Origin: an uncultured Bacilli bacterium
GTDB lineage: Bacteria > Bacillota_I > Bacilli_A > RF39 > UBA660
DNA length: 17,004 bases
Assembly (NCBI GenBank): GCA_910578745.1
Contig: CAJTSN010000027.1
Span: 5,099-22,102, forward strand
Reading direction: 5' to 3'
Part shown: positions 4,608-13,787 of the stretch, piece by piece
How positions within the stretch are numbered: the first letter of the stretch is position 1
How the letters are laid out: each line of letters begins with the position of its first letter
The notes under the pieces: model-generated
What the model was told of the DNA's origin: nothing
The model's input: the letters and a program-made list of their open reading frames with translations, nothing else
Database searches by the model: none
Program-made: the position numbers and the translations under genes

Positions 4608-4761
4608 AGAATCACCACTATTATTATACTATACTTTTTTTCTATTTAATAGTTTTTTTTCTAAATTTTTAGAGCTTGTCCTTTTTTCAGTTCCTTTTTA
4701 AATTTTCTATTCTTTTTGTTTTAAAAGAATTCTAATAAATATGCTCTATGAATAATAAATT

Positions 4762-4797: not shown

Positions 4798-6276
4798 TTA
4801 CCTTTTTCTTTGTCCTACCTCATACTGATGTAATCTTGATAGTGCACTTTCATTTATATATATTACCTTTCCACCCACTGGATTTATTTTACAATTACCA
4901 AATACAATCCAGATTGCATCTATTTGCGTATTTGGCATATCTGCCCATCCATCCGTAAAAATCACCTTATTTTCCACTCTCCTAGTAAAAGCACCTACAG
5001 CTGCATTAAAATCAGTGCCTCCACCGCCATAAAAGGTTAAATTATCAATATCGGATTCATCTTTTATTTCTGTAAACCCATAGAATTTTGTATCAAAACA
5101 TCCTACCTTTACTTTCGAATTTTGCAATATATTTTTACATTCCCTTAAGAAATTTCTAAGAAGTATTTCATCAATAGAACCACTTGTATCCAACACAATT
5201 TCTGTTTCAGGTTTTGGCATTTCTTCTAGATAGGGTGTTACTACACCATCCTCAATTCCAGCGTTTTCATATGACCAATCGATAGCATAATTTACGGCTT
5301 CTTTTAACAATATTCTCCAATCAATTAAGGGTTCAGATATTCCAATAGATGTTATATTTCTTATATTCTCATTTGCATCGTTGCTATGGCCATGTGACTG
5401 ACTTGCTAATGCATTTTTAAGTTCTTCTAGTTGCTTCTTACGTTCAACCTTATTTTGTCTAAAGGCCTCTTTCTCTCCCAATTGTACTATTTTTTGAATT
5501 TCATCATACCTTATGTTTTCTGACTCCAATTCTGGCTCTCTATCTACTTCCTTTTTTGTTTCCTGTGACGATTCTTGTTTTTCCTCTAACCTGTCGTTTG
5601 CACTTTTCTCTTTAGAAGGATTTTCCTCTTCTTTACTTTTTCTCTCGGTTGCTTTTTTCCACATAGAATGTGTATCGTGTCCAACATCATGATATTCATT
5701 CGTATCTTCCCTAACATCTGATTGTGTCATTTTTTCAGATGTCTGATTTGGTTCTTTTTGACCATCCTGCTTTTGTTGATTCTCATTATTTGAGGAACTT
5801 TGTTCGAATTGATTTTCTCCCTGTTGTGTCTTATTTTCTGCATCCACATTTTTTTGATTTTCGCTTGAACTATTCTTTTCTTGTTTCTTTTTCTCCTCTA
5901 ATAGTATCTGATATAATTCTTCTGCGTCATAGTCAATTGCTCCTTGAATATCAACTCCTCCTTTTGACAAAGGTAGGCCATCGTGTTTTAAAAAAGCATT
6001 GATAACGGCATCCGTTGCCATATTCCATAAATCTGGGTCTTTTCCAACACTTCTCCATATATGATTAAAAGCAATATGACAGATTTCATGGGCAAGTATA
6101 AATACCTGTTCCATAATAGGAATAGAGGAAAAAAAGGTAGGATTATAGTATACAACCTCTCCATCCGTTCCTGCTGTTTCTAAAGACATTTCACTTTTAA
6201 ATTTACAATGAGCAACTACACTCCCAAAAAAAGGATACTTTACTAACACTTTATTTATAACTGTCTCTATATTCAT
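4798..6276 (-). CDS. Metallopeptidase-like (HExxH, DUF2201_N-type) plus VWA-like (DUF2201-type) protein with a long disordered linker
   Basis: The N-terminus reads PFFGSVV...TAGTDGEVVYYNPTFF...LAHEICHIAFNH...WNMATDAVINAF. The C-terminal VWA has an intact MIDAS-type set: DTSGS, GGGGTDF and FTDGWAD. I set the start at the ATG at 6276 (AGGAAA 8 nt upstream). The ORF-track start at 6321 has no RBS and overlaps the upstream gene. Confidence 0.8.
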   Translation of the reverse strand: MNIETVINKVLVKYPFFGSVVAHCKFKSEMSLETAGTDGEVVYYNPTFFSSIPIMEQVFILAHEICHIAFNHIWRSVGKDPDLWNMATDAVINAFLKHDGLPLSKGGVDIQGAIDYDAEELYQILLEEKKKQEKNSSSENQKNVDAENKTQQGENQFEQSSSNNENQQKQDGQKEPNQTSEKMTQSDVREDTNEYHDVGHDTHSMWKKATERKSKEEENPSKEKSANDRLEEKQESSQETKKEVDREPELESENIRYDEIQKIVQLGEKEAFRQNKVERKKQLEELKNALASQSHGHSNDANENIRNITSIGISEPLIDWRILLKEAVNYAIDWSYENAGIEDGVVTPYLEEMPKPETEIVLDTSGSIDEILLRNFLRECKNILQNSKVKVGCFDTKFYGFTEIKDESDIDNLTFYGGGGTDFNAAVGAFTRRVENKVIFTDGWADMPNTQIDAIWIVFGNCKINPVGGKVIYINESALSRLHQYEVGQRKR

Positions 6277-6286
6277 AGTATATTTC

Positions 6287-6688
6287 CTAAATTTGAGCAC
6301 ATAAGGAATATACTTCCTCATTCATTTTATGCATTCTTAAATCAGAACAAGTGGCAACAACAAAACAATTTTTAGGTAAATCAAAAGTACTCACTTTTTT
6401 ATATTTTAATATTTCCACAAATTTTGTTTGTTCTTCTAAAGCAATTTCATTAATATTTTCAATCACTAAAATCACAGGACCTAATTTACTTTTCTCTAGT
6501 AATGTTTTATACCATTCTGGAGGACAAAATTCTATATTCTCATAGTGTCCATTTAATTGAAGTCTATCTATATCTGCTTTTATAATAACCGCATTATCAA
6601 AAACAGTAGCAGGGATGTTTTGAATTAATAAAGGAGAGATGCCAGATTGCATATAATTTTCTAATAAACTTAATCTATCTTTATTCAT
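6287..6688 (-). CDS. Degenerate AAA-like protein with no P-loop, a paralog of the core of the upstream ATPase
   Basis: The 133-aa ORF has GGAGG 9 nt upstream, and its ATG overlaps the upstream stop (ATGA). It aligns by eye with the AAA core of the 6685-8295 product. PPEWYKTLLEK matches PPTWYSKVKEK, VILVIENINEI matches IHIIFFDELTNA, LPKNCFVVATCS matches IPSNARIVAAGN, and LLIQNIPAT occupies the place of FLHGRSSEGKS. Confidence 0.6.
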   Translation of the reverse strand: MNKDRLSLLENYMQSGISPLLIQNIPATVFDNAVIIKADIDRLQLNGHYENIEFCPPEWYKTLLEKSKLGPVILVIENINEIALEEQTKFVEILKYKKVSTFDLPKNCFVVATCSDLRMHKMNEEVYSLCAQI

Positions 6689-8295
6689 CGTCTTATTCCT
6701 CCTTGGGTATTCATTTCAGACATTTGTATTTCGAGGAGTCGCTCTAATCTGGATTCATCGCCATGTACCCACATCGATTCAAAAGCCGCTCTTGGCTCTG
6801 CGCCCACTCGTTTCATAAAATCTCTTACTATTTCAAAATGTTCATCATCAACAGAAGATAAACCAACAGCGGTTGCAAATTTCTGTGATACATCCATTTC
6901 GAAGTCCCATTCTGAGTAATTATGATGAATTACATCTTCAATACTTATAACTTGAAGTTTTGTAAATGCAACAAAATCTCTTGTTAACTCCTCTCCTATT
7001 AATGCACGAAGCATTTCTGGTTTTTTCGTCTTATAAAGCACTTTGGAAGCCATCTCCCATTTTCTTGGATCTGCATTTGGCTTATCTCCTGTATAAGGGG
7101 TTCTTAGTACATCATAACCACTATAGGATTTATAAGCCACATAAGCATAAATTGCTGGATGAATAAGGTTCTCTTTTTTTTCCTCTTTATAATCCACCCT
7201 CTCATATTTGTCTCTTGGCGTAGATGCCCATTTTAACCAACTATCTACGGTTGTTTGAATGTATACGTGTGCGAATCGATTAAATAAAGGCTCTGCCATT
7301 TGATTAGCGGCTAACGAGTCATTCAAATCATTCCCAGCGGCCACAATTCTTGCATTCGAAGGAATCTTCCATTTTCCATCTACTTCTCCATCTAACACAA
7401 TATTAAACGCCATTCCCTGAATAGAAGGAAGTGCATTTGTAAGTTCATCAAAAAATATGATATGGATTTTATTTGGTTCTTTTTCACATTTTTCCTTTAC
7501 TTTGCTATACCATGTTGGTGGCACATCGATCATTTCCCCTGTTTGTGCATTATATACACTTTTTCCATTTAAACTATTCGGTGTTGCATTTCTCATATAT
7601 ATAATTTCACAGTCTGGATCAAATTGTTTTACTCTTGCTGACTTACCCTCACTTGATCTACCATGTAGAAACACCGAAATGTTACTTTCTATAGCCCCTT
7701 TAATAATCTCTTCTTCCGATACATTCCCAAAATCAAAATGATAGGGATTTTCTTTTCGTAGTTGTTTTCGTTCATCTGAAATTTCAACTTGCTTTGTGTC
7801 CTTTTGTACATAGACTGTATCAGCCATTATTTCCTTTGCAAAACAAGTATCCATAAATTGTTTAATATCTGTTTTATCAAAGTTTCCATCATAATTCCTT
7901 TGATTTTTAAATTGAACTCCTGAAAATATAATTTTTTTACAAAGTGCAATATTCGTTCTTTCATCTACTAACCAAATAATTGGTTCAACTTCTACCCAAC
8001 ATTCACTTCCAAATTGAACCGATCTTCCATTGGATAGAAACTGACCATCACAGTTTTCATCAACAATAAAACGAATGTATTTTTTTCCATTATATTCATA
8101 TTCTACATGCTTTCTAGCTTTAAATTTTATATCTGTATCTCGATAGCTGACACAATCGGTTGTATAACTTTTTCCTGTTGTTTTTAAATTACCTCTTTTA
8201 TAGAATTCCTCTAATATACGTGCGTCATTATCACTTACTATAGTCTGAGGATATTCTCCATAATTAACTTCCTTAATTCCATTAGCGACTCTCAC
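6685..8295 (-). CDS. MoxR/AAA_5-like ATPase body of the DGR target. As an isolated ORF it has only a GTG start and no convincing RBS.
   Basis: Walker A is GRSSEGKS (7639-7662) and Walker B is IIFFDE (7444-7461). The sensor-1-like segment is RIVAAGND, followed by EPLFNRFAHVYI. Upstream of the AAA core lies a beta-rich segment (YGEYPQ...WVEVEPIIWLVDE). The frame is open and continuous upstream through the VR to the TGA at 8395-8397. Confidence 0.8.
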   Translation of the reverse strand: MRVANGIKEVNYGEYPQTIVSDNDARILEEFYKRGNLKTTGKSYTTDCVSYRDTDIKFKARKHVEYEYNGKKYIRFIVDENCDGQFLSNGRSVQFGSECWVEVEPIIWLVDERTNIALCKKIIFSGVQFKNQRNYDGNFDKTDIKQFMDTCFAKEIMADTVYVQKDTKQVEISDERKQLRKENPYHFDFGNVSEEEIIKGAIESNISVFLHGRSSEGKSARVKQFDPDCEIIYMRNATPNSLNGKSVYNAQTGEMIDVPPTWYSKVKEKCEKEPNKIHIIFFDELTNALPSIQGMAFNIVLDGEVDGKWKIPSNARIVAAGNDLNDSLAANQMAEPLFNRFAHVYIQTTVDSWLKWASTPRDKYERVDYKEEKKENLIHPAIYAYVAYKSYSGYDVLRTPYTGDKPNADPRKWEMASKVLYKTKKPEMLRALIGEELTRDFVAFTKLQVISIEDVIHHNYSEWDFEMDVSQKFATAVGLSSVDDEHFEIVRDFMKRVGAEPRAAFESMWVHGDESRLERLLEIQMSEMNTQGGIRR

Positions 8296-8339
8296 TCCGT
8301 TCGAGGAGATAGATGAGATTAATAAAGAATAAGGTAAAG

Positions 8340-8413
8340 CGGGACGAGCCCCAACAGAACGTCCCGTAACATGGGAGCAGTCCCTATTCCCATTTCAGCC
8401 AACGGCGCGCGCG
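8340..8413 (-). repeat. DGR variable repeat (VR)
   Basis: It aligns base for base with 9922-9995 (offset +1582). There are 13 mismatches, at 8357, 8358, 8363, 8364, 8373, 8375, 8376, 8377, 8382, 8383, 8396, 8399 and 8400. Every one lies opposite a plus-strand T of the TR, which is a coding-strand A. No mismatch occurs at the other 51 positions. Confidence 0.92.
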
Positions 8414-8622
8414 TCATTATCACCATCAGATGACTTTGTCCACCAACAACCTGCTCTATCCTTTCCACTACATCCTTCATTTGTGTAAGAATTTGATGCT
8501 ACATAACCTCCTAATAAAATAGAAAAGTCTGTTATAGCACATGCTGTTCCATACTTTTTCATTATATCTAACGAATTGCTTCCAAATATCTGTTCCTCCG
8601 TTAGAAATGTAAAACTATTCAT
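8395..8622 (-). CDS. N-terminal fragment of the DGR target (variable ligand-binding-type domain), truncated by a stop generated inside the VR
   Basis: The 75-aa ORF has a good RBS. FLTEEQIFG...ACAITDFS...GCWWTKSS...ARAVG followed downstream in frame by VGARPAL resembles the '...WWLRS....A..V..G......GVRPAL' C-terminal half of lectin-like domains that are commonly DGR-diversified in Bacillota. This resemblance is from memory and has not been searched. Confidence 0.65.
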   Translation of the reverse strand: MNSFTFLTEEQIFGSNSLDIMKKYGTACAITDFSILLGGYVASNSYTNEGCSGKDRAGCWWTKSSDGDNDARAVG

Positions 8623-8674
8623 ATATATATCACCACTTTTATTTTAACATATTTTCCCATTATTTGACAATTTT

Positions 8675-9697
8675 TTATTTAAAAGGGAAAGTATCCATTT
8701 TTAGCCTTTCACTTTCTTGTGTATTCTTAATATGATTATAAAAAGCATTTTTTCGAATATATACATATTCATCATCAACGATTCCCTTATTATATAATTT
8801 GTTTACTGTTTTTAAATGTTTTCTCATTCGCTGTTTTGAAGTATACCTTAACTTCACAATGATTTTCCCTGTAGTTGTTAAAATATGACGATACCCTAAA
8901 AAATCGACTCCATTTTTAACCATTCCTATTTGTGTCTTATCATTTAATTCTAAATTCAATACATTTTTACATAATTTTTCGATTTCCTGTTTACATAAAG
9001 CTAAATATTTTTTATCTCTATGAGGTAATATCATATCATCCATATAACGTACATATCCACGAATTCTCAAACTTTCTTTTATAAAGTGATCCACTTTATT
9101 TAAATATAAAAGAGCAAACCACTGACTTGATTGATTTCCTAAAGGCAAACCCACACTTGCATGATCTGGTTGTTCCTGAATCAATTTCCTTATCATCCAC
9201 ATCTCATCCTCTGAAAAATGGATTTCTTCTAAAAGGTGAATCAATATATCATGATTTATACTGGGAAAATACTTACGTATATCACATTTTAAAAAATATA
9301 TATTATTATTATTTTCTCCTCTATATTCTTTTCTTAAAAAAGCATGCAATCTTTCTATAGCAAAATTTGTTCCCTTTCCTTTTCGACATGCACAATTGTC
9401 ATATACTAATCTTTTATCTATTTTAGGTTTTAAACAAGCATCACAAAAACATCGAATGACCACTCGATCTTTAAAGGGAAGCGCTTCTATTAATCGTTCT
9501 TTAGGTTCATAAACATAAAATTTTTTATATTTTCCTAATGTATACTTTTTTGTAACCAATTCTTTATGTAGAGTATTTAAATTAAGCGCTAAAGCGGTTT
9601 CGAATCGAATGACCTCTCCCTTATGTTGCTTAGACATCCTACAATTTTTATAAGCTTCATTCAAATTTTCAAAAGTAAAAATTTCATCCAAATGCAT
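8675..9697 (-). CDS. DGR-type reverse transcriptase
   Basis: RT motifs are present: EPKERLIEALPFKDRVV, FLKCDIRKYFPSI, the catalytic YVRYMDDMIL, and FLGYR. Motif 4 reads LPLGNQSSQWFA, the 'GxxxSQ' form typical of DGR RTs rather than the 'QGxxxSP' form of group II intron and retron RTs. The size is 340 aa and there is no X/En or extra domain. I set the start at the ATG at 9697 (GGAGG 5 nt upstream) rather than 9736. Confidence 0.9.
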   Translation of the reverse strand: MHLDEIFTFENLNEAYKNCRMSKQHKGEVIRFETALALNLNTLHKELVTKKYTLGKYKKFYVYEPKERLIEALPFKDRVVIRCFCDACLKPKIDKRLVYDNCACRKGKGTNFAIERLHAFLRKEYRGENNNNIYFLKCDIRKYFPSINHDILIHLLEEIHFSEDEMWMIRKLIQEQPDHASVGLPLGNQSSQWFALLYLNKVDHFIKESLRIRGYVRYMDDMILPHRDKKYLALCKQEIEKLCKNVLNLELNDKTQIGMVKNGVDFLGYRHILTTTGKIIVKLRYTSKQRMRKHLKTVNKLYNKGIVDDEYVYIRKNAFYNHIKNTQESERLKMDTFPFK

Positions 9698-9921
9698 ACT
9701 TTCCTCCAAAAAATAAACACCCCCTATAACGCACAAAGAGTCATCTTACTCATTGCTTGTGTGAGTGTTCCTATATTTTTCCATCGCATCTTTGAAAATA
9801 CATCTTTTAGCGATTAGAAAAGAAGAAAATTCCTTCACCTTACAATACGGATATATTTTTCTTAAAATATATTTCTCTGATTTGTTTTCTGAATTTTATA
9901 AAAATTCCTTCAAAAGTGAAT
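9698..9921 (-). ncRNA. TR-to-RT spacer, probably part of the non-coding DGR template RNA
   Basis: It has no credible ORF on the minus strand. It lies between the TR and the RT start, where DGR spacer RNA is located in characterised elements. Several AT-rich hairpins are visible, for example GAAUUUU-UAU-AAAAUUC and AUCGC...GCGAU. Confidence 0.45.
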
Positions 9922-9995
9922 CGGGACGAGCCCCAACATTACGTTTCGTAACATTGTTTCAGTTTCTATTCCCATTTTAGTTAACGGCGCGCGCG
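9922..9995 (-). repeat. DGR template repeat (TR)
   Basis: It is a non-coding copy of the VR with 23 coding-strand adenines. In the target frame it reads A R A V N * N G N R N * N N V T K R N V G A R P and is rich in AAC/AAT codons. It is bounded by CGCGCGCGCC at the 5' end and GGGGCTCGTCCC at the 3' end. Confidence 0.92.
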
Positions 9996-10071: not shown

Positions 10072-10665
10072 CTAATTTCTTTTTCTCCATCTTTCATCAT
10101 CGCTTTTCTTCCAAGCAATAACTAAATTAATTGTTTCTGCTAATTGCATAGAGATTTGATTATATTGCTTCTTTAAAATACAACCTGAACTCTCAGCAAC
10201 CATTGCTATATATCCAAGCAATTTCAATTTCACAATCGCTTCTTTTTGATAATGTTCCCTTTTTACTTTGTTTGAAGCAGAGTCCATTCGAATAAAATTT
10301 GCTTCTAATAAACACTCTATAGTATCTAAACAGTAATTCTGCATCCGATTTACAAATACACCTCTAAATTTCTTTGGAGATTTTTCTGTAACTGTAATTA
10401 CATAAGCACACAACTTTTTTGCTACTGTAATAACAATTAAATCATTTGCATTAGAAGGAATTTTATCAATTATTTTTAACTCTTCCTCTTCTACTTTCAT
10501 TTGTTCTCTCATCTTTTTTTGATTAAACTTTTCATGCGTAGCAACAGCGATTCCTTTTTTTGTTGCAATAACATCTTCAATTTCATTGGCTGTTCTTTCT
10601 ACAATCTCTATTTTTTTAGGAATTTTTAAATTATTATCACGACTGACTTGCAACACATGTATCAC
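10072..10665 (-). CDS. avd: Avd-like accessory variability determinant (four-helix-bundle family). The start is uncertain.
   Basis: The C-terminal segment of about 130 aa (KKFRGVFVNRM...LLEANFIR...KREHYQKEAIVKLKLLGYIAMVAES..ILKKQYNQIS..LAETINLVIAWKKS) fits the Avd/four-helix-bundle pattern. The gene sits immediately upstream of the TR. The ORF-track start is a GTG without a well-spaced RBS. Internal ATGs (codons 52 and 56) would give a more typical size of about 140 aa. Confidence 0.75.
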   Translation of the reverse strand: MIHVLQVSRDNNLKIPKKIEIVERTANEIEDVIATKKGIAVATHEKFNQKKMREQMKVEEEELKIIDKIPSNANDLIVITVAKKLCAYVITVTEKSPKKFRGVFVNRMQNYCLDTIECLLEANFIRMDSASNKVKREHYQKEAIVKLKLLGYIAMVAESSGCILKKQYNQISMQLAETINLVIAWKKSDDERWRKRN

Positions 10666-12130: not shown

Positions 12131-12156
12131 ACAAAAAAAGAGAAACAATTCTCTTT
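12131..12156 (-). terminator. Intrinsic terminator after the pilin-like gene
   Basis: The minus strand reads AAGAGAA-TTGT-TTCTCTT (12155..12138), a perfect 7-bp stem, followed by TTTTTTG. Confidence 0.7.
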
Positions 12157-13787
12157 TATTTAATCGTTATAACAGGTCTAAAACCAATTTTCAAATTGGC
12201 AGAACCATTTGTTCTATCATATGCATATAGTCCACTCGTTGTATTTCCAGAATAGTTTCCACCACGAACCATATATTTATTTGTAGCATCTACCATATTA
12301 TGCTTATCTTCATACTTTCCAAATAATGCCCCACCAGCACAATTGGCTTCTGTATTTAAACACGCTTTATTCGGGTAATAATCGACATATTTATTATCTA
12401 TAGCCGTTCCCCCTAAATTCAAAGATGTTCCATTATAGGCCATAACAAATTCTTCGTATCCTCCCGACATATCATAAATACCTGTGATATTCCCAGAAGT
12501 AGTTCCACTCATAGAAGCTTGACTCGCATAATTATTCTTGCACTCCGTAGAAACACTTCCACCAGCATTTCCAGAAGTACAACCTGTTATTGTTCCTCTA
12601 TTATAGTAATTATTAAGCCATATTTCTTCCTTTTTTCCATAATTAGAATCGGTTAGGTAAGCAACAGCCCCCCACTCCACATTCTTCATAAGATGGGTAT
12701 CAACTTGTGCAGAATTTAACCCAAATGAATCTGTAGAAGTAGCCATATTTTGTGTAACTTTAAAAGCATTAGCAAGGGATATACCTGACCAAGAATTTCT
12801 ACCTGGAACGGTTACTAAATCAATATGTGTTTTATTACAACTTGCTATATCTGGCGTTTGAAAGCAACTTGTATTAATAGGAGCACTCGCCTCGAATTTC
12901 GCAACCCACATTCCTTCTAACTGCTTTCCACCAAATTGAAAAGCGGGATGAATTCGATAGCCACTCGTTGGTGAAGTCTGTGTTGTTTTAATAAAGCGAA
13001 TAGCAAAACCATTTCCTTCTTGCTTATACTCATATCGTGGAATCCATACATACATTCCTGTTACATCATCTAAACTAATTTTAGTTCCTGGAACAGCTCT
13101 TTGATAATAAGATCTTGCATGTTTTGCATTTCCATCTAGGCAAGTTACTCCCTGTCTAGACTCACAATCAGACTTATTCTTAGAAAATGTCATCGCATTT
13201 GCCCATTTCTTTTCTCCATAGTTATACCAAGCTGTCGTCTTATCGGCTATAACCCAGTAACCTTTATCTTCCCTATACACAACTGGCACTAATCCATCAA
13301 CTAAGGAAGGATAAATTCCATCTTGCAAAGTATTATCTTTATAAGATGGCTTTGGTTCTTTATTTACATCGGTTGCATTTGTACACTCAATATCTTCAGA
13401 CAAAACATATTCAAATTCATTAAACTCATTCGTCGTTGCATAAATAATTCGCTTTAAAAAATTTTTCTTTTCTTCCTCGGTTTTCCCATAATCAATATAA
13501 TCTTGTAATTTTTCTTCTTCTATCTTTCCAGCATCAATTAATTCTTTAATAGTAATACAATAACTTGCCCTCTCTTCAGGCCCTATATATAGTTTTTGAT
13601 AAGTATTCGTATCGCCACTAGTATAGCTATCAGCTGCATCATACAACATTTGCTTTGCTGTATCACTAATAGCCCCTCTTTTAGATGCTGTCAAATTTTG
13701 AATTTGTGGAAGAGCAACAATAATAACTAATCCCATGATTATGACTACTGCTAACATTTCTACTAAAGTAAATCCTCTTTTTCTCAT
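12156..13787 (-). CDS. Prepilin-type (type IV pilin/pseudopilin-like) protein with a large C-terminal FGE-sulfatase/C-type-lectin-like domain
   Basis: The N-terminus MRKRGFTLVEMLAVVIIMGLVII is a class III signal, with cleavage after G and Glu at +5. The C-terminal part has WVAKFEAS, VEWGAVAYL, GIYDMSGG and a terminal MVRGGNYSG...GFRPVI, resembling the 'RGG....GFR' end of FGE-like folds. Confidence 0.7.
   Translation of the reverse strand: MRKRGFTLVEMLAVVIIMGLVIIVALPQIQNLTASKRGAISDTAKQMLYDAADSYTSGDTNTYQKLYIGPEERASYCITIKELIDAGKIEEEKLQDYIDYGKTEEEKKNFLKRIIYATTNEFNEFEYVLSEDIECTNATDVNKEPKPSYKDNTLQDGIYPSLVDGLVPVVYREDKGYWVIADKTTAWYNYGEKKWANAMTFSKNKSDCESRQGVTCLDGNAKHARSYYQRAVPGTKISLDDVTGMYVWIPRYEYKQEGNGFAIRFIKTTQTSPTSGYRIHPAFQFGGKQLEGMWVAKFEASAPINTSCFQTPDIASCNKTHIDLVTVPGRNSWSGISLANAFKVTQNMATSTDSFGLNSAQVDTHLMKNVEWGAVAYLTDSNYGKKEEIWLNNYYNRGTITGCTSGNAGGSVSTECKNNYASQASMSGTTSGNITGIYDMSGGYEEFVMAYNGTSLNLGGTAIDNKYVDYYPNKACLNTEANCAGGALFGKYEDKHNMVDATNKYMVRGGNYSGNTTSGLYAYDRTNGSANLKIGFRPVITIK

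Follow-up and report, generated by a model that had tools for sequence, protein, structure and literature searches.

Can a retroelement that rewrites a gene from a template stay active when that template encodes stop codons in the gene's own reading frame, and what becomes of the gene? The question is raised by a 17,004-nucleotide stretch of DNA from an uncultured Bacilli bacterium (GenBank assembly GCA_910578745.1, contig CAJTSN010000027.1, positions 5,099 to 22,102), hereafter the window. Its minus strand carries a complete diversity-generating retroelement (DGR), comprising an Avd-like accessory gene, a template repeat (TR), a reverse transcriptase (RT) and a target gene with a variable repeat (VR), in the order avd-TR-RT-target. 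A first-pass annotation, made from the letters of the window alone, had pointed out that this TR holds both a TAA and a TGA in the frame of the target. Here we examine the two codons in the window, in other samples of the same species and across related loci, and find that they probably give rise to both full-length (ON) and truncated (OFF) alleles of the target.

Template repeats have been described as arranged so as to avoid nonsense codons (PMC4372165, PMC10907252, PMC12875486), and stop avoidance has been proposed as a mark of DGRs under selection (PMC10907252). In a limited literature search we found no description of natural TR-encoded stop codons, an absence that a search of this extent leaves unproven.

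Two stop codons in the template

TR and VR form an 83-nt direct repeat, 81% identical and 1,582 nt apart, the sole such pair standing out in the window. Because every difference within the 73-nt core sits at an adenine of the copy at 9995-9913, this copy is the TR (9913-9995, minus strand) and the copy at 8413-8331 is the VR (8331-8413, minus strand), which spans codons ~70-97 of the target. In the core, 13 of the 23 TR adenines are changed in the VR, as against 0 of the non-adenine positions. By our own arithmetic, the odds of 13 differences all falling on the 23 adenines are about (23/73)^13, or roughly 3e-7. The same adenine-only pattern is found in 13 further related loci (given below as L numbers, with proteins and protein clusters as P numbers). 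Their TRs were located with an ungapped scan that forgives mismatches at TR adenines, lenient local alignment having given spurious long matches in AT-rich DNA.

The TR comprises a core homologous to VR (9995-9923) followed by a TR-specific 3' flank (GATTCACTT). At their 3' ends the repeats share GGGGCTCGTCCCG, after which the VR continues with CTTTACCTT and the TR with ATTCACTTT. The GC-rich element and the divergence after it are of the initiation of mutagenic homing (IMH) type, and the two ends would be IMH-like and IMH*-like, respectively, with this function being putative. A short GC-rich hairpin (GGGGCTCGTCCC) closes both TR and VR. Just 3' of the TR core (window 9913-9925) stands GATTCACTTTTGAAG, or GATTTGCTTTTGAAG in four distant lineages, and this flank is kept in 14 of 14 loci at 50-80% target identity; it may be part of a DGR RNA element that primes cDNA synthesis.

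The remaining parts of the cassette are in place. The RT lies at 8675-9736 (minus strand), a 353-codon open reading frame (ORF) whose likely start Met at 9697 gives the 340 aa called in relatives; it matches Pfam RVT_1 (E = 6e-17), contains YMDD and has a readable ...GNQSSQW... motif. Upstream of the TR, at 10072-10665 (minus strand), the Avd-like gene is a 197-codon ORF (194 aa as called in relatives) that matches bAvd (PF22296; 24.5 bits, cut-off 40) and DivGenRetAVD (28 bits, cut-off 80) only weakly, and in every related locus it likewise stands upstream of the TR. Adenine-specific TR-to-VR differences, an RT with YMDD, a VR inside a gene with a GC-rich, IMH-like 3' end and the ongoing retrohoming described below together mark the element as a DGR.

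Whether the two template codons are stops for the target depends on its frame, and the first-pass annotation had allowed that the true frame might be a different one. This concern falls away: the ORF that begins at ATG 8622 and the ORF that ends at 6685 are in the same phase, separated by a single TGA, and more than 100 homologues are uninterrupted proteins of ~645 aa in the same frame, which makes the target frame certain. In that frame the TR reads GCG CGC GCC GTT AAC TAA AAT GGG AAT AGA AAC TGA AAC AAT GTT ACG AAA CGT AAT GTT GGG GCT CGT CCC. The TAA is at 9977-9979 (the first site, or position 2) and the TGA at 9959-9961 (the second site, or position 8), both on the minus strand, so the annotated coordinates and frame are right for a reading from 9979 to 9977 and from 9961 to 9959. 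Its count of eight AAY/AAA codons is also about right (AAC three times, AAT four times and AAA once, plus AGA), and AGA and AAA can themselves mutate to stops.

A faithful copy of this TR would truncate the target, and a full-length product needs mutation at both sites, as had been proposed. The VR of the window reads ...GTT GGC TGA AAT GGG AAT AGG GAC TGC TCC CAT GTT ACG GGA CGT TCT GTT GGG..., in which the TGA-templated codon is resolved to Cys (TGC, 8377-8379, minus strand), and the TAA-templated codon is still a stop (TGA, 8395-8397, minus strand). The latter ends a 75-aa N-terminal fragment (ORF 8622-8395). What follows is a remnant ORF of 536 codons (6685-8295, minus strand) with a GTG start. 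The window is thus predicted to carry a null target allele, split into a 75-aa fragment and a 536-codon remnant.

Genetic code of the host

The stops would not act as stops under an alternative code in which TGA means Trp or Gly, such as those of Mycoplasmatales or Gracilibacteria, or under efficient TGA readthrough. Some relatives are labelled 'uncultured Tenericutes', which speaks for this idea, and low-efficiency readthrough of UGA as Trp has been reported in Bacillus subtilis. We therefore read TGA as sense in stop-to-stop ORFs and counted TGA against TGG. Long genes of the window and of six related loci (L003-L006, L024 and L027) use TGG for Trp and hold no internal in-frame TGA, so that TGA is a true stop in this host (code 11), and genes of the window terminate in TGA, TAA and TAG. 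In addition, all three stops occur among OFF alleles, including unmutated TAA and TAG, and ARAGORN and Rfam found no tRNA, suppressor tRNA or known RNA element in the window. A recoded genome is essentially refuted, and recoding or readthrough together are very improbable explanations of the data.

Template stops across samples and lineages

The first-pass annotation had also considered that the stops might be recent lesions in a dying element, to be recognized by sense codons at the same positions in related templates. Comparison of the TRs indicates otherwise for the closest relatives. TAA and TGA are both present in every independent sample of the species that we examined (the window, L092-L095, L109, L110, L114 and L117-L121), and the TR is identical across these samples except for AAA or GAA at one non-stop codon in a second strain. 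A sister species, whose target is 78% identical, carries TAA and TGA at the same two codons (L003, L099/L100 and L111). With the same pair in two species and an element that is active, the stops are not recent lesions.

Beyond these two species the templates vary. TAA occupies the first site in L004, L006 and L062 and the second site in L005, and L024/L027 have a TAA at a third codon. In the family as a whole, in-frame template stops turn up in seven or more TR lineages. Roughly half of the related lineages sampled have sense codons in their TRs at these positions, with AAA and TGG in L012, L013, L101 and L106. The TRs of L030, L049 and L090 are stop-free as well. Template stops, as far as these loci tell, are not universal in the family. 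First-site TAA lineages do not form a single clade in a neighbour-joining tree of the targets, indicating that TR stops were gained or lost repeatedly.

Two shortcuts through this comparison proved unsafe. The retention of both stops between the two species is not significant evidence of selection on its own at 83% TR identity. Likewise, among 153 full-length homologues the second-site residue is Trp in 97 and Cys in 36; reading a Cys at position 8 as a sign of TGA in the TR fails in L101, which has TGG in its TR and TGT in its VR.

ON and OFF alleles in one genetic background

In the window's species we read 15 distinct VR alleles in DNA beside an essentially invariant TR. The first site holds TGA, TAA, TAG, TGC, TGG, TTT, TCT, TCG, GGG or GCG, and the second TGA, TGG, TGC or TGT; one further allele is frameshifted by a 1-nt deletion upstream. 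N-terminal fragments are 75 aa long after a first-site stop and 81 aa after a second-site stop. The 90% protein cluster of the species mixes full-length proteins with the 536-aa remnant ORF, which is called as proteins P0121-P0123, P0127 and P0130 on 43 contigs.

These alleles coexist in otherwise identical DNA. Against L092, L093, L094, L097, L098, L001 and L002, the window shows 11-17 mismatches in the VR and 0-1 outside it over 3.2-8.6 kb; the VR is the only hypervariable stretch between samples, and all differences but one lie inside it. The 1,611-nt remnant ORF is DNA-identical in 12 ON and OFF samples, and in a diverged strain the remnant region differs by 21 synonymous versus 8 non-synonymous codon changes. 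Because differences outside the VR are near zero and the remnant ORF is identical, the ON and OFF alleles are best read as recent products of retrohoming in one genetic background, not as old pseudogenes.

The sister species repeats the pattern with a different balance. At position 2 its full-length VRs encode Y, S, L, F or C, the residues reachable from TAA, with V in one case, and at position 8 nothing but W or C, those reachable from TGA. Truncated alleles occur as well, one of them with both stops unmutated together with a 1-nt deletion, and ON alleles clearly predominate. Several VRs carry 1-nt (frameshift) or 3-nt deletions relative to the TR (L095, L096/L117 and L111-L113; proteins P0125 and P0129), indicating that retrohoming here yields indels as well as substitutions.

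Where else do VR stops occur? We surveyed 88 loci sampled by tblastn, independently of whether their ORFs were intact. In-frame N-terminal stops were found only in L006 (TAG), L024 (TGA) and L027 (TGA), in each case at a TAA-templated codon. None of the ~70 loci with a stop-free TR or without a TR had an in-frame VR stop, and no VR-truncated members were present in the protein clusters with stop-free TRs (P0012, P0009, P0102 and P0087).

Variable repeats are heterogeneous regions that assemblers handle poorly, and all data here are metagenome assemblies or metagenome-assembled genomes (MAGs). VR variants mixed during assembly, or a misassigned frame, could in principle imitate the OFF alleles. 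We regard such an artefact as highly improbable: a stop is three adjacent bases that lie inside single k-mers and reads, the stops fall at the two predicted codons in many independent assemblies from different pipelines, and the frame is fixed by the flanking ORF and the full-length homologues.

These observations are consistent with a simple account of an active chromosomal DGR, in an uncultured low-GC Bacilli species of the mouse gut, whose TR holds the nonsense codons TAA and TGA in the target frame. Each retrohoming event would keep or replace the adenines of the two codons, so that TAA becomes Y, S, L, W, C, F or a stop, and TGA becomes W, C or a stop. Each rewriting of the VR would then amount to a draw between a full-length (ON) and a truncated (OFF) target, and the window would be an OFF draw, with TAA turned into TGA and TGA into TGC. 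Because the VR sits at codons 70-97 of 645, almost all of the protein is lost after a stop there; stops at codons 76 or 82 would be expected to abolish it, given that the next in-frame ATG is ~180 codons downstream and that the GTG at 8295 has no convincing ribosome-binding site. The ATG of the next gene overlaps the target stop, and a premature stop would for that reason probably also lower expression of the two downstream genes. A later retrohoming event could reset an OFF allele and, OFF alleles being resettable in principle, the locus would behave like a stochastic ON/OFF switch laid over diversification. We place the probability that the TR-templated stops yield the ON and OFF alleles at about 0.82; this figure applies to the mechanism and not to its adaptiveness.

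Frequencies against a neutral expectation

How often would an unselected draw come up ON? The remaining TR adenines are substituted at a frequency of 0.46, with replacements split into G (53%), T (26%) and C (22%). Under a neutral model of adenine mutagenesis, TAA stays a stop in 55% of copies and TGA in 54%, the AGA and AAA codons add ~6% each, and the probability of an ON allele is 0.18-0.21 of retrohoming products. Among contigs of public assemblies, 65 carry the VR-independent 133-aa neighbour of the target and 43 the 536-aa remnant ORF, from which about one third of contigs are ON. A rough partition is one third ON, ~40% OFF by a VR stop and about a quarter RT-deleted. By this estimate ON alleles are enriched ~1.5-2.5-fold over a neutral draw, and null alleles are very common. 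The simulation that the first-pass annotation had proposed for comparison with read data thus predicts ~20% ON, and is set here against contig counts, with about one third ON, instead of against reads.

Several points weigh against the account of templated ON/OFF alleles given above. The ON and OFF fractions are counts of contigs rather than independent samples of known design, and some contigs with the 536-aa ORF are RT-deleted rather than VR-stop alleles. A non-adenine change affects the T of the TAA-templated codon in L001 (GGG, 278-356) and L109 (GCG, 2811-2889), both ON, and in L004 (AGA, ~4220); adenine mutagenesis leaves these changes unexplained, and they may be rescue mutations, RT errors at U or the result of a recent change in the TR. 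The RT of the window has CCT (Pro) at codon 238 (9023-9025, minus strand), 4 residues past YMDD, where every other sample reads CTT (Leu) and the residue in relatives is L, V or I. Private to the window, this codon is its sole non-VR difference from the other samples over up to 8.6 kb. The L238P change may disable the RT, in which case the OFF allele of this strain may be frozen rather than switchable. Finally, switching within a population, reversibility, expression, polarity and any benefit are elements of the account that we infer.

Origin of the template stops

The mechanism says little about how the stops arose, and here the cassette's other routes to inactivity are informative. The RT and the target N-terminus are deleted in 6 of the 23 Avd-anchored contigs, in which the 5' flank of the TR runs straight into a mutagenised repeat of VR type and then the VR 3' flank. 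The fusion sites are at 3300-3470 in L091/L116 and at ~2950-3050 in L115 (the equivalent of window 8331-9995), giving two hybrids in two strain backgrounds. Exact shared sequence at the junction extends over 17-18 nt, so misassembly at k ≥21 seems unlikely; recombination between TR and VR, or integration of an over-long cDNA, could have produced the deletion. An initial grouping in which all 14 'similar places' of L091 counted as RT-deleted was rejected, since the Avd-anchored sample shows that grouping to be loose. Frameshifts break the RT of the sister species in L099/L100 (1574-2595) and L111 (1947-2995); that of L003 is intact. L107 combines a 5'-truncated TR with a broken RT. As read from the DNA, the frameshifts and the damage in L107 are independent inactivations of the cassette.

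One explanation of the stops is tolerated decay: they would have entered the untranslated TR by drift, under weak or fluctuating selection on the target, with ON and OFF alleles as a by-product in a system on its way to loss. This idea concerns the origin of the stops and is compatible with the ON/OFF mechanism, and we give it about even odds. The TR is untranslated, so that selection on it is second-order and acts only through rare retrohoming. The path from TGG through TGA to TAA consists of G-to-A changes, the AT-biased direction in a genome of 31% GC. The ON fraction lies within ~1.5-2.5 times the neutral expectation, and the losses just described, possibly joined by L238P in the window's RT, show that inactivation is frequent by other means. 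Close relatives carry stop-free TRs with AAA and TGG, and neutral retention of both stops at the TR identity of the two species is not improbable (0.83^6, or ~0.33, by our arithmetic). Decay sits less well with a highly active DGR whose target is otherwise intact and identical in ON and OFF alleles, with the purifying selection evident in the remnant region of the diverged strain, or with the predominance of ON alleles in the sister species, where function would seem to be selected. Template stops in at least seven lineages, with a position-2 TAA that is not monophyletic, are also much to ask of pure accident.

Repeated appearance is what might be expected if the stops were instead selected for bet-hedging or phase variation, keeping most cells OFF for a costly or self-reactive AAA+/VWA module while a minority of diversified ON variants keeps being produced anew. 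The stops recur at position 2 (the window and L003, L004, L006 and L062), at position 8 (TGA in the window and L003, TAA in L005) and at another codon (L024/L027); ON and OFF alleles share an isogenic background; with the VR so near the N terminus, any stop in it leaves a clean null, and the next gene would be tied in through the ATGA overlap. DGR-diversified sensors are known, moreover, from MoxR-vWA conflict systems (PMC7159879, PMC10907252). Set against this are the near-neutral ON/OFF ratio, the irreversible inactivations that are also common, the lack of a match between the target and the PADLOC or NCBIfam defence models and the stop-free half of the sampled related TR lineages. We consider selected switching a minority possibility. 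It stands clearly behind the alternative, somewhat better than an even bet, that the stops arose and persist because selection reaches a template that is never translated only weakly and at second order, in a genome biased towards AT.

The first-pass annotation had suggested a built-in filter or a silencing device. The coexistence of ON and OFF alleles bears out the effect that such a device would have. Whether such a device was selected for is another matter: ON alleles stand at only ~1.5-2.5 times the neutral level and the locus is also inactivated by other routes, a pattern that weak or fluctuating selection explains no less well than design does.

Target module and gene neighbourhood

The DGR target (6685-8622, minus strand) has 645 codons including the one in-frame TGA. 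Its VR domain is at the N terminus, followed by a beta-rich middle part; the C-terminal half is AAA+-like. Searches with the target protein of the window against Pfam, NCBIfam and PADLOC returned nothing, and PDB sequence searches with this single protein and with a 61-sequence profile were empty. Its homologues have weak matches, below or near threshold, to AAA_5, Sigma54_activat and DUF6273, and they weakly match the C-terminal part of DUF6273 and Fib_succ_major, which bears on a possible C-type-lectin or Ig-like fold of the variable domain. An AlphaFold2 (AF2) model built on a 61-sequence alignment reaches a predicted local distance difference test (pLDDT) score of ~80-90 for residues 1-260, with low confidence in the ATPase half; Foldseek with the whole model returned no significant PDB match and weak similarity to MCM and dynein AAA modules.

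Two genes follow the target. The ATG of a 133-aa gene (6287-6688, minus strand) overlaps the target's terminal TGA as ATGA (6685-6688), an arrangement that suggests translational coupling, and this gene is always next after the target in related loci. The third gene of the module (4798-6321, minus strand) encodes a DUF2201_N and DUF2201 protein, a putative metallopeptidase with a VWA-like domain, and is kept downstream in related loci. Distant homologues of the target (50-67% identity) occur as tandem paralogue pairs with no TR or RT nearby (L019, L020, L022, L036, L032, L033, L051, L052 and L057), and L102 and L103 hold the three-gene module without a DGR. The module therefore also exists apart from diversification.

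Genes for RNase J, FtsY, RodA, YceD and PrsW flank the cassette, and these neighbours place the DGR on the chromosome. Related records are gut MAGs of uncultured Bacilli or 'Tenericutes', and the record names of close relatives point to mouse-gut metagenomes. Beyond the divergent RodA gene, upstream of the cassette, lies a gene for a 543-aa protein with an N-terminal prepilin-type methylation motif (N_methyl; 12156-13787, minus strand), which adjoins the cassette in related contigs too. The stretches 4611-4665, upstream of a 104-aa EIIB-like gene, and 8629-8683, upstream of the target ATG, are 73% similar; the likeness could come from a regulatory region common to both or, in DNA this AT-rich, from chance. 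At 8670-8641 there is a promoter-like site, TTGTCA-18-TAAAAT with TG.

Discussion

A natural, active DGR here breaks the stop-avoidance design rule, in a breach common to two species and recurrent in the family. Its consequence in wild populations is that many of the alleles are null in a genome that otherwise does not vary. The case raises the questions of how strongly selection acts on an untranslated template and of whether a DGR can double as an ON/OFF switch. It also bears on surveys: wherever a pipeline filters out prematurely terminated DGR targets, active elements like that of the window will be undercounted, and in one curated set over half of the candidate DGRs were discarded for premature stops, truncations or similar defects (PMC5758913). 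If the TR stops are indeed selected, such surveys would have systematically missed DGRs of this kind, and the element would be a combined diversifier and phase-variation switch acting on an N-terminally sensed AAA+/vWA module.

Among known systems, the closest in layout are the canonical DGRs of Bordetella phage BPP-1 (Mtd) and the chromosomal ones of Legionella, Treponema and Thermus. With these the element shares the cassette of Avd (a weak match here), TR, RT and target, the adenine-specific TR-to-VR differences, the GC-rich element with IMH-like and IMH*-like 3' divergence and an AAY-rich TR. It differs in its avd-TR-RT-target order and in the position of its VR, which lies near the N terminus of a 645-aa protein where theirs is C-terminal; an N-terminal VR was found in 3 of 372 curated DGRs (PMC5758913). 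Above all, the exclusion of nonsense from TR codons that is typical of DGRs does not hold, with TAA and TGA in frame and AGA and AAA stop-capable besides.

In the make-up of its target module, the locus loosely resembles the MoxR-vWA (VMAP) and other NTPase conflict systems (Kaur et al. 2020, PMC7159879; Dore et al. 2024, PMC10907252), in which a small lectin-like domain diversified by a DGR is connected with an ATPase of AAA+-like type and with a partner that is vWA-like or a metallopeptidase, together forming a cytoplasmic multigene module; assignment to that family is weak. In those systems the FGS/CLec domain is C-terminal and usually fused to the vWA component, and the TRs are reported to exclude nonsense, whereas here the diversified domain is N-terminal on the ATPase-like protein.

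The alleles themselves invite comparison with classical phase variation by slipped-strand repeats or invertible promoters, which also produces stochastic, locus-specific null and functional alleles in an isogenic background, with the OFF state set by a stop or frameshift near the 5' end. Here an RT rewrites the gene from a template, each ON state means a new variant of the protein, and the ON/OFF comparison is between samples. An engineered kanR repair assay with a TAATAA TR (PMC12875486) offers the nearest parallel for the chemistry, since there too the adenines of TR stop codons are mutagenised and copied to the target, stop codons being treated no differently from other codons that contain adenine. 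The assay relies on an artificial construct in which the stops end a reporter gene; those described here occur naturally, lie within the target frame and are conserved among populations in the wild. A conceptual analogue, unrelated in mechanism and phylogeny, is provided by the non-productive V(D)J rearrangements of vertebrate lymphocytes, in which diversification likewise generates a large share of null products that is filtered afterwards.

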